A stretch of DNA of 24,000 bases, taken from NCBI GenBank assembly GCA_963719015.1, contig CAVRBA010000028.1:5787-29786 (forward strand), in the 5' to 3' direction. Made by a program: the position numbers and the translations under genes. This stretch comes from an uncultured delta proteobacterium. GTDB lineage: Bacteria; Desulfobacterota; Desulfobacteria; Desulfobacterales; SG8-13. The stretch's first letter is position 1, and each line of letters starts with the position of its first letter. The notes under the pieces are model-generated. The model did no database searches. It saw only the letters and a program-made list of their open reading frames with translations, and was not told where the DNA came from. Shown here in pieces: positions 18,554 through 19,804 of the stretch.

Positions 18554-19804
18554 TCACGCGAAAGCCGCCGCCACCCATATGGTTGCAGCGGAAAGAACGG
18601 CGGCCCCCTGCCAGGGAATCGCTCGGCGCATCTCCTTTTCGACACCCGAAGGCGATGTAAAGGGCGTTGCGCCCGTGAAGTTCATGGATAGAATGGAGCT
18701 GAAAGCAACCGTGCAGATCAACAGAGACAACAGCTCCCACCCGTTGAGGTTGTGCCAAGCGGCCACTGCCAGCGTCACCCCTGATAATACCCCGGTAAAG
18801 AGGCCTTTCAATGCAAAAGCCCGTGCGGGCAGCCAGGGCAGCAGAAGCGGTACGGCAATAGCGCCACCGATGATTCCGGCCGCACAGGCCGCAGTCAGCA
18901 TCAACCCTCTGCGCCAGGCGTCGTCAAAAGAAAATCCGCCCGGGCCGATTCCGGAAAGGATGAATCCAACGACCAACACCCCAACCAGATATTTAGGGAT
19001 CACGGCAAGTTCCACCGGGATCAGAACGAAACGCTCCCTTAGGGAAAAAGTCACCTGACGCATACCGGCATCGGCATTGAGGCCAGATTCCAGAAAACGC
19101 TTTAGATCCTTGGCTCTGACAGGGCCCCATACGATCTCGAATCCACACTCTTTTTTTACACGATGGGCGGCGACACCGGTTGCCGCCAGCTGGGGCAGTA
19201 CAAGCCGCCGGTGTTTGACAAGCCGCTCCAAACCGGCATTCTTGACGCAACGCACCACCTCGGCGGTGGAGAACGTTCCCTTGCCGGCGGCACACCAGAC
19301 ATTGATTCCGCGTGTGTCGAGCACCAGGATCCAGGCGTCGATAGAAGTCAGCTCTCGGCGCAGAATATCGAAGGATAGCTTGTAGTTGGCCGTGACCAAA
19401 ACCGGTGAGTTTTCACTGGGGGTACCGGTACAATACAGCCCGGGAGCAATCAGATAGCTGTTGCGTCCGATGCCGCAACGGACTTTGACACCGGCAAGGA
19501 TATCGGTAGTGTCAAGGACGGTTCTGACCCGTGGAACTTCGCCAACAGATGTCTTTTCGAATTCGGTAACAAAATGCCATAATCGGTATCCCGGCCGCTC
19601 GTAGGGGCTACAGGGCGGGCCGGCGGGTGGACCGCAACAAACGGCCTCATCCGGAGCTTCTCCGGCAGCCTGCAAACGTTCCGACGCTGCACCTGCAGAC
19701 GCGGTTTTTGCTCAGCAGCCGTTAGATAGCGTCTCGACTGCGCCGTCACCGTCGGGGCAAGATTCCACCGCAAGGGCATTTCCATGCGTGCCTTCTTTGT
19801 GCAT
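18554..19804 (-). CDS. hgcA: HgcA, corrinoid mercury-methylation protein. Annotated from ATG 19804 through an in-frame TGA (19712-19714) proposed to encode Sec. The conservative core ORF is 18554-19675.
   Basis: It has the cap-helix signature GINVWCAAGKGTF, a CFeSP-gamma-like corrinoid domain and a C-terminal bundle of hydrophobic helices, with hgcB directly downstream. Evidence for the N-terminal extension is given in the findings. Confidence applies to the HgcA identity; the extension is about 0.5. Confidence 0.88.
19681..19704 (-). promoter_or_regulatory. Candidate bacterial SECIS hairpin 3' of the in-frame UGA of hgcA
   Basis: The mRNA folds as CCG-CG-(U)-CUGC[AGGU]GCAG-CG-(U)-CGG. UGCAGGU occupies nt 18-24 counted from the U of UGA, the same register as in the E. 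coli fdhF SECIS as I recall it. Confidence 0.5.

Follow-up and report, generated by a model that had tools for sequence, protein, structure and literature searches.

Methylmercury production depends on the HgcAB proteins, and we know of no established route by which Hg(II) reaches the corrinoid methyl group. Here we analyze the hgcA gene encoded on the minus strand of a 24,000-nucleotide (nt) stretch of DNA from an uncultured delta proteobacterium of the Desulfobacterales (GenBank assembly GCA_963719015.1, contig CAVRBA010000028.1, positions 5,787 to 29,786; this whole stretch is referred to below as the window, and coordinates count from its first nucleotide). Selenocysteine (Sec) is already known in this protein family: Haft & Gwadz (bioRxiv 10.1101/2022.07.06.499078; also cited as J Bacteriol 2023, 205:e00259-22, in PMC11588087) reported that most HgcA proteins are selenoproteins with a Cys-Sec (CU) motif in an N-terminal extension, where Sec occupies the second place of the proximal pair within a fully conserved PCUGP motif, and their Supplementary Figure 7 has Sec in the PCUGP column only. 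Reference data for Sec-HgcA are now included in the NCBI annotation pipeline, and a 2026 review counts HgcA among the selenoproteins. A preliminary description of the window, which proposed a Sec-containing HgcA and was not aware of any described before, was wrong on that second point.

The window gene resembles the published Sec-HgcA proteins in that it belongs to the same family, has an N-terminal extension that can be reached only via one UGA codon and is missed by gene callers, carries a Cys immediately before the putative Sec (CU) within a Cys-rich tail, and is adjacent to an hgcB gene whose product ends in Cys-Cys. It differs in that the putative Sec precedes the proximal pair by 24 residues and has its own distinct hairpin. 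At the published site the window reads GTT TGT TGC GGT CCA (VCCGP; 19642-19628), a Cys-Cys pair in place of PCUGP, and the predicted Sec is therefore at a position other than the published one. Judged from the sequences compared here, this Sec position and its selenocysteine insertion sequence (SECIS) are new and are confined to a small clade of Desulfobacterales.

We put the probability at about 0.85 that hgcA in the window would be translated from ATG 19804 with the UGA at 19714-19712 decoded as Sec, under the direction of an fdhF-like SECIS directly downstream. The comparative evidence is strong, and SelB-dependent reading of the UGA is for that reason well supported. The preliminary description had reached the same reading, which gains support here from conservation of the TGA and of the hairpin register, from three relatives that lack a start codon between the TGA and the Cys-Cys, from synonymous constraint, and from the outcome of two bacterial SECIS (bSECIS) tests. 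The recoding signal is conserved and read-through is required in some relatives, and we infer that the residue inserted is Sec.

An hgcA reading frame interrupted by a single UGA

The hgcA frame is open on the minus strand from ATG 19804-19802 to a stop at 18554, with the TGA at 19714-19712 as its sole interruption, and the extended translation reads MHKEGTHGNALAVESCPDGDGAVETLSNGC-[UGA]-AKTASAGAASERLQAAGEAPDEAVCCGPPAGPPCSPYERPGY... Thirty sense codons (MHKEGTHGNALAVESCPDGDGAVETLSNGC) precede the TGA, and the frame continues after it as AKTASAGAASERLQAAGEAPDEAVCCGPPAGPPC..., running into the 373-amino-acid (aa) open reading frame (ORF) that ORF callers report as hgcA (P0001) from TTG 19675. This TTG is the only in-frame ATG, GTG, or TTG between the TGA and the CCGPP motif, and it has no clear Shine-Dalgarno sequence. 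The preliminary description had read the ATG, a GAAGGA upstream of it, the single in-frame TGA, and a 9-bp hairpin correctly from the sequence, and its statement that TTG 19675 is the sole start before the conserved CCG region was borne out by an in-frame start-codon scan. The elements of the locus are as follows, where the clade comprises the window gene and relatives that are introduced in the next section and numbered with the prefix L.

19905 to 19934, minus strand: candidate sigma-70-like promoter, TTAACA-18-TATTAT, from a consensus scan only (10/12 matches), about 100 nt 5' of ATG 19804
19813 to 19818, minus strand: Shine-Dalgarno-like GAAGGA, read directly, 8 nt before ATG 19804
19715 to 19804, minus strand: first 30 codons of the extended hgcA ORF (MHKEGTHGNALAVESCPDGDGAVETLSNGC), frame open in 9/9 clade members
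19712 to 19714, minus strand: in-frame UGA, proposed Sec codon (residue 31), conserved in L001-L004, L085, L165, L166, and L167
19681 to 19704, minus strand: bSECIS-like hairpin, the minimum free energy (MFE) structure, with apical loop AGGU occupying 19694-19691 (nt 21-24 counted from the U of UGA)
19673 to 19675, minus strand: TTG start of the ORF callers, probably an internal Leu codon, without an equivalent start in L002, L003, and L004
19634 to 19639, minus strand: TGT TGC, Cys56-Cys57 of VCCGPP, the column of the published PCUGP selenocysteine, here Cys-Cys
18554 to 19804, minus strand: full hgcA coding sequence as proposed, 416 codons including Sec31, plus stop
18217 to 18492, minus strand: hgcB, 91 aa, NF040864 score of 117.9 bits (cut-off 99)

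Both genes are clear members of their families by curated score cut-offs, by the HgcA cap-helix motif, and by the adjacency of an hgcB whose product has a C-terminal Cys-Cys. HgcA scores 421.8 bits against NF040863 (cut-off 275), with residues 90-415 covered, and contains GINVWCAAGK (family motif N(V/I)WCAAGK). HgcB has GVGC at the known HgcB Sec site, that is, Cys and not Sec, and ends in ...SAACC. Elsewhere in the window TGA is an ordinary stop codon (thiL, 17198; hgcA, 18554), and an alternative genetic code with UGA as a sense codon was rejected because TGA terminates these two genes and is not found inside any other gene.

Conservation of the UGA in related hgcA genes

Eight relatives (L001-L004, L085, L165, L166, and L167) have a single in-frame TGA at the same position. 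L001-L004 share 66-85% protein identity and synteny with the window (cytochrome c3, rhomboid, a 349-aa protein, hgcA, and hgcB, with thiD, thiL, and thiE on the opposite strand), and the remaining four are more distant. In a neighbor-joining tree of 165 HgcA cores, the window gene, these eight relatives, and one further gene, L168, make up a clade that includes no other sequence. The four closest homologues are annotated as short proteins of 324-342 aa, and the DNA 5' of each called start contains one in-frame TGA and an open frame to an ATG 28-30 codons upstream, with the peptide xxSASAGA directly after the TGA in all four.

The extension behaves as coding sequence throughout the clade. A start codon with a purine-rich Shine-Dalgarno sequence lies 28-31 codons 5' of the TGA in 9/9 sequences, with no other stop between start and TGA, which is the pattern of a selenoprotein gene with a conserved in-frame UGA. 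Across the nine members the leader stretch is free of stops in frame 0 (the other frames contain 11 and 15), and differences in leader length are multiples of 3 (28 codons in L001 and 30-31 in the others). The TGA is 24 codons from the invariant Cys-Cys in 7/9 sequences, and C56, C57, and G58 are invariant in an alignment of 30 sequences. A lack of conservation of the upstream codons in orthologues, or a scatter of stops among them, had been named in the preliminary description as evidence against its reading; the TGA is instead kept in eight relatives and the upstream frame is free of such stops, and none of the other contrary outcomes it listed that could be examined here was found.

These observations bear on the possibility that the TGA is a true stop, that the 30-codon ORF is a separate leader peptide or meaningless, and that HgcA starts at TTG 19675 or further downstream. 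Gene callers do start P0001 at that TTG, and NF040863 models residues 90-415 only; the activity of a tagged HgcA whose annotated start lies past its UGA (described below) points the same way. In L002, L003, and L004, however, there is no ATG, GTG, or TTG between the TGA and the Cys-Cys, so that the invariant CCGPP...ERPGY segment of these proteins requires read-through; the callers begin these genes 44-62 codons past the TGA, within conserved sequence. The TGA, the 24-codon spacing to the Cys-Cys, and the register of the hairpin are moreover retained while the flanking codons diverge, and the TTG of the window has no clear Shine-Dalgarno sequence to recommend it. We consider termination at this codon quite improbable and return to recoding of the UGA as Sec.

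A hairpin in the register of the E. coli fdhF SECIS

The sequence 3' of the UGA forms the hairpin CCGCG-U-CUGC[AGGU]GCAG-CG-U-CGG at nt 11-34 from the U of UGA, with 9 bp and two single-U bulges, and this is the MFE structure. The Escherichia coli fdhF SECIS (TGACACGGCCCATCGGTTGCAGGTCTGCACC...), as quoted in the preliminary description, was exact, since 5413 E. coli records contain the 41-mer under fdhF with an identity of >=99%, and the heptamer UGCAGGU does occupy nt 18-24 from the UGA in both the window and E. coli fdhF. The window contains a single TGA-N14-TGCAGGT, where 0.03 would be expected. Both elements leave G23 and U24 unpaired, in an apical loop of 4 nt above a stem of at least 4 bp, and the window hairpin has a bulged U immediately 5' of its upper stem; the loops differ, being GGUC (nt 22-25) in fdhF and AGGU (nt 21-24) in the window. 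The hairpin recurs in the same register in the eight relatives as UCU(G/A)C-AGG(U/C)-G(C/U)AGA at nt 16-29, from which the window differs by a C at nt 29. Of the SelB determinants of fdhF that the preliminary description had recognized, the unpaired G23 and U24 in the loop hold for the window and 6/8 clade relatives (L166 carries C24 instead, and the site of L168 is not a TGA), but the bulged U16 is a feature of the window only, since U16 pairs with A29 in the clade relatives.

We compared these sites with a published bSECIS consensus (PMC13188914), which specifies a loop of 3-9 nt, a stem of >=4 bp, a G in the first two loop positions, a distance of 16-37 nt from the UGA, and an MFE of -7.5 kcal/mol or lower, and with a strict, E. 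coli-like test for G23/U24 in a small loop. Both tests are our own implementation, with 1880 out-of-frame TGAs in hgcA as controls. The window hairpin passes the consensus (a 4-nt loop, G at loop position 2 followed by G, 17-nt spacing, -11.9 kcal/mol) and the strict test as well. The pass rates were as follows.

Upstream-site TGAs (clade plus L149): bSECIS consensus 7/10; strict G23/U24 6/10
Proximal and CUPP-type HgcA Sec sites: bSECIS consensus 24/30; strict G23/U24 5/30
Out-of-frame control TGAs in hgcA: bSECIS consensus 253/1880 (13.5%); strict G23/U24 2/1880 (0.1%)

Because the background pass rate is 13.5%, agreement with the consensus is weak evidence on its own. The nucleotide sequence of the hairpin also appears to be constrained beyond the peptide it encodes: at fourfold degenerate sites in the five close orthologues, 24/121 (20%) are invariant across the gene, versus 4/4 of the hairpin codons, the longest such run. 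In L166, L167, and L168, the pair G19:C26 has changed to A19:U26, so that the peptide SAGA becomes STGV and the base pair is kept. As a single pair, and probably one event, this compensatory change is supportive but not decisive.

Several results weigh against insertion of Sec or against its importance. The folding energy of the hairpin is ordinary for G+C-rich sequence (z = -0.68, with 50/200 shuffles folding as well), and because it is insignificant relative to shuffles we left it out of the evidence. Rfam at gathering thresholds finds just a tRNA-Glu and a thiamine pyrophosphate (TPP) riboswitch in the whole window and no SECIS family. The preliminary description had suggested a search with SECIS models; the Rfam covariance models give no match, and the bSECIS consensus and strict G23/U24 tests are passed. 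With ordinary shuffle energies and silent Rfam SECIS models, the hairpin taken alone is within chance; its register and conservation, unlike the hairpin alone, exceed chance. The covariation score was reached by 65/500 shuffles, a weak statistic, and the covariation itself reflects one compensatory pair and probably one evolutionary event. No selA, selB, selD, or tRNA-Sec gene, and no further TGA-split gene, lies in the 24-kb window. An N-terminally His-tagged HgcA from strain ND132 still methylates in E. coli lysates (PMC11588087), and the annotated start of that protein is 3' of its UGA (Haft & Gwadz, bioRxiv 10.1101/2022.07.06.499078). Finally, the residue at the Sec position can be lost, as in L168, which has Phe there.

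L168 itself (positions 3001-4254 of its locus; NCBI GCA_030670715.1, DAOVBC010000024.1; protein P0008) is an in-clade gene with TTC at the Sec position. It has no Cys there and has lost most of the tail cysteines, and a relic hairpin, UCUAC-GGGC-GUAGA, is kept; Sec seems here to have been lost secondarily and replaced by a residue other than Cys. In a permissive Rfam scan of 19500-19900, SECIS_5 scored 14.8 bits at 19798-19832, which is a different site from the hairpin and at chance level, and this candidate was rejected. With respect to the source of the window, its RadA groups it with uncultured Desulfobacterales, at 85% identity to metagenome-assembled genomes (MAGs) and 76% identity to the Olavius Delta-1 symbiont, an organism with an unusually large selenoproteome (PMC1976440); this affiliation speaks only indirectly for the presence of Sec machinery.

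The absence of Sec machinery genes from the 24 kb and the tolerance of Phe in L168 can be cited for a read-through of the UGA without Sec, either by a near-cognate tRNA (Trp or Cys) or by SelB-delivered Cys on tRNA(Sec) under selenium limitation. Leaky read-through would have no need of a conserved SelB-type hairpin with G23/U24 in register, however, and the use of Sec in the HgcA tail is known for the family, and we assign this explanation a low probability. An error of assembly or sequencing at the TGA, or a decaying pseudogene, in which the codon would be a miscalled or mutated TGC or TGT (Cys), is very improbable. Two probable frameshifts in other genes of the window (LUD-domain gene, ~13795; sensor kinase, ~11280) do indicate that the assembly is not error-free, but these are indels and not substitutions. 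Nine independent contigs from ENA, JGI, and Logan samples share the TGA, and both hgcA and hgcB are otherwise intact, with scores well above their family cut-offs.

A proposed Sec position distinct from the published PCUGP site

To place the window gene among other HgcA sequences, we surveyed 160 other hgcA loci, 80 from species-representative genomes and 80 from metagenomes. The proximal site carries U in 31 genes, in addition to several CUPP-type forms in Desulfuromonadales-like genes. Sec at the upstream site was found in 0/80 of the species-representative genomes, where the window clade is absent and the best hgcA match is 58% identical, and in 2/80 of the metagenome loci, where the best match is 64% identical; these two are L085, a clade member, and L149, a separate candidate. 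PCUGP is distributed over many lineages, and the upstream UGA is found in the Desulfobacterales clade of the window and possibly again in L149. Within the known HgcA tail, the putative Sec of the window is best described as a clade-specific relocation or a second acquisition in uncultured Desulfobacterales. Sec would accordingly not be bound to the PCUGP motif and could sit about 25 residues away while PCCGP remains all-Cys, and the clade supplies a second, sequence-distinct candidate SECIS for hgcA.

L149 (position 1444; Ga0316187_10010799; 54% identity) falls outside the clade. It reads ...NRPTG-UGA-DSDCSTGS..., with the UGA 21 codons before the proximal Cys-Cys, no start codon between the two, and a different hairpin that presents G23/U24 in a GUU loop; it may represent an independent upstream-site Sec. 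More in-frame UGA forms were seen in hgcA 5' regions, namely, CUPPKAPPG in L073, L079, and L142 and SCUP... in L147, L151, and L163. These belong to Desulfuromonadales-like and other lineages, lack the ERPGY motif, and mostly have a bSECIS-like hairpin, and they are probably the counterparts of the published GSU1440-type PPCUGP group, set in a different context. L164 and several other loci with an apparent U 40-50 residues upstream were rejected, as the codon is merely a stop before the real start.

All-Cys HgcA homologues have a near-invariant Cys-Cys pair 26-28 residues upstream of the proximal pair, compared to 24 residues for Sec in the clade. MAFFT placed Sec in the column of this distal pair only once U was written as C, which biased the match, and L085, L165, and L166 have extra Cys-Cys pairs upstream of Sec. 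Given this bias and the other upstream pairs, we do not claim exact homology of Sec to the second Cys of the distal pair; from the alignments, the HgcA tail is too variable for residue-level homology.

The truncated gene calls have a practical consequence. In the clade, hgcA ORF calls are shortened by 43 to 92 codons, and the invariant CCGPP is cut off in 4/5 close orthologues. With the calls shortened in this way, surveys of hgcA and catalogues based on hidden Markov models will mis-annotate the clade genes.

A predicted disordered N-terminal tail with a putative role in mercury handling

In the mechanism that we propose, translation would initiate at ATG 19804, and SelB with Sec-tRNA(Sec) would recode UGA 19714-19712 as Sec by the standard bacterial route, the machinery for which is assumed. 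The stem-loop beginning 10 nt past the UGA would direct recoding, with the AGGU loop presenting G23/U24 at the fdhF distance. The product would be a 416-residue HgcA in which residues 1 to ~60 form a disordered N-terminal tail bearing Sec31 (after Cys30) and, 24 residues on, the invariant Cys56-Cys57. In an AlphaFold2 model of P0008, the closest full-length homologue, residues 1-59 have a per-residue confidence (pLDDT) of 30-40 and no secondary structure, and the Sec position and the proximal Cys pair are on this basis predicted to be part of a disordered arm that precedes the corrinoid domain.

This arm may have a metal-handling role. The selenolate would be a soft-metal ligand that could take up Hg(II) or retain the methylmercury product, and the arm might pass mercury to or from the corrinoid site in concert with the proximal Cys pair and with the Cys-Cys at the C terminus of HgcB. 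A capture or relay role parallel to that of the HgcB tail is a reasonable inference by analogy with vicinal-Cys mercury tails (the HgcB C-terminal Cys-Cys, the N- and C-terminal Cys pairs of MerA, and the CU selenoproteins of the MerT family), which have in common with the HgcA tail a pair of soft ligands on a flexible terminal segment beside a mercury-handling enzyme, the HgcA tail being predicted to be disordered. The difference is that the partner thiol is variable in the window clade. The same vicinal-Cys parallel was drawn by Haft & Gwadz.

The residue before Sec is Cys in 4/9 clade members and G, D, D, D, and T in the other five, and the Gly-Cys context is unconserved even among the five close orthologues (SC, DC, KC, and SG). 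Mammalian thioredoxin reductase has a C-terminal Gly-Cys-Sec-Gly redox centre in which Sec is the penultimate residue, and the preliminary description had likened the window's Gly-Cys-Sec tripeptide to it. The likeness is a resemblance only, as the window Sec is N-terminal (residue 31 of 416) in a GCUA context, with Ala and not Gly following, and HgcA has no flavoprotein partner; with the Cys beside Sec unconserved, the analogy is weakened further.

The metal-capture role is tempered by the presence of Cys before Sec in only 4/9 members, by the Phe of L168, and by the lysate activity of ND132 HgcA. Since the tagged ND132 protein is active, the tail is unlikely to be essential for catalysis in vitro, and from these comparisons it looks accessory rather than catalytic. 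The natural variants CU, GU, DU, TU, and Phe bear on whether a vicinal thiol is needed. More tentatively, HgcA may have two chalcogen stations, one at a distal cluster of Cys residues and one at the proximal CCGP, with selenium recruited independently at either one; we regard this as possible but doubtful. If it is true, the stations would be functionally interchangeable relay sites for Hg(II) or CH3Hg+, and the clade would amount to a natural "site-swap" experiment in which L168 is a natural Sec-to-Phe knockout.

Other features of the window

On the plus strand, a TPP riboswitch (14403-14501; 58.7 bits) lies 5' of a thiM-thiE-thiL-thiD operon (14554-18043), which converges on hgcB, an arrangement kept in the hgcAB loci of the clade. 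The 349-aa protein encoded between the rhomboid gene and hgcA (20260-21309, minus strand) has no Pfam or NCBIfam match and is conserved in L001-L004; the more distant L167 and L168 have a gene for an ArsR-type helix-turn-helix regulator in its place.

The two disrupted genes lie further toward the start of the window. The LUD-domain gene (13595-14252, plus strand) is spread over two frames, with 13595-13867 corresponding to Pfam positions 4-52 and 13797-14252 to positions 60-189, which places a frameshift at ~13795-13810 that is, from the sequence, either an assembly indel or the sign of a pseudogene. A PAS/HisKA/HATPase sensor kinase (10455-12243, minus strand) appears to be broken into two ORFs that overlap in different frames, of which 11122-12243 encodes a truncated PAS domain and 10455-11441 the remainder of the kinase. 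It probably contains a second frameshift near 11280 and is followed by a sigma-54 response regulator (9061-10671).

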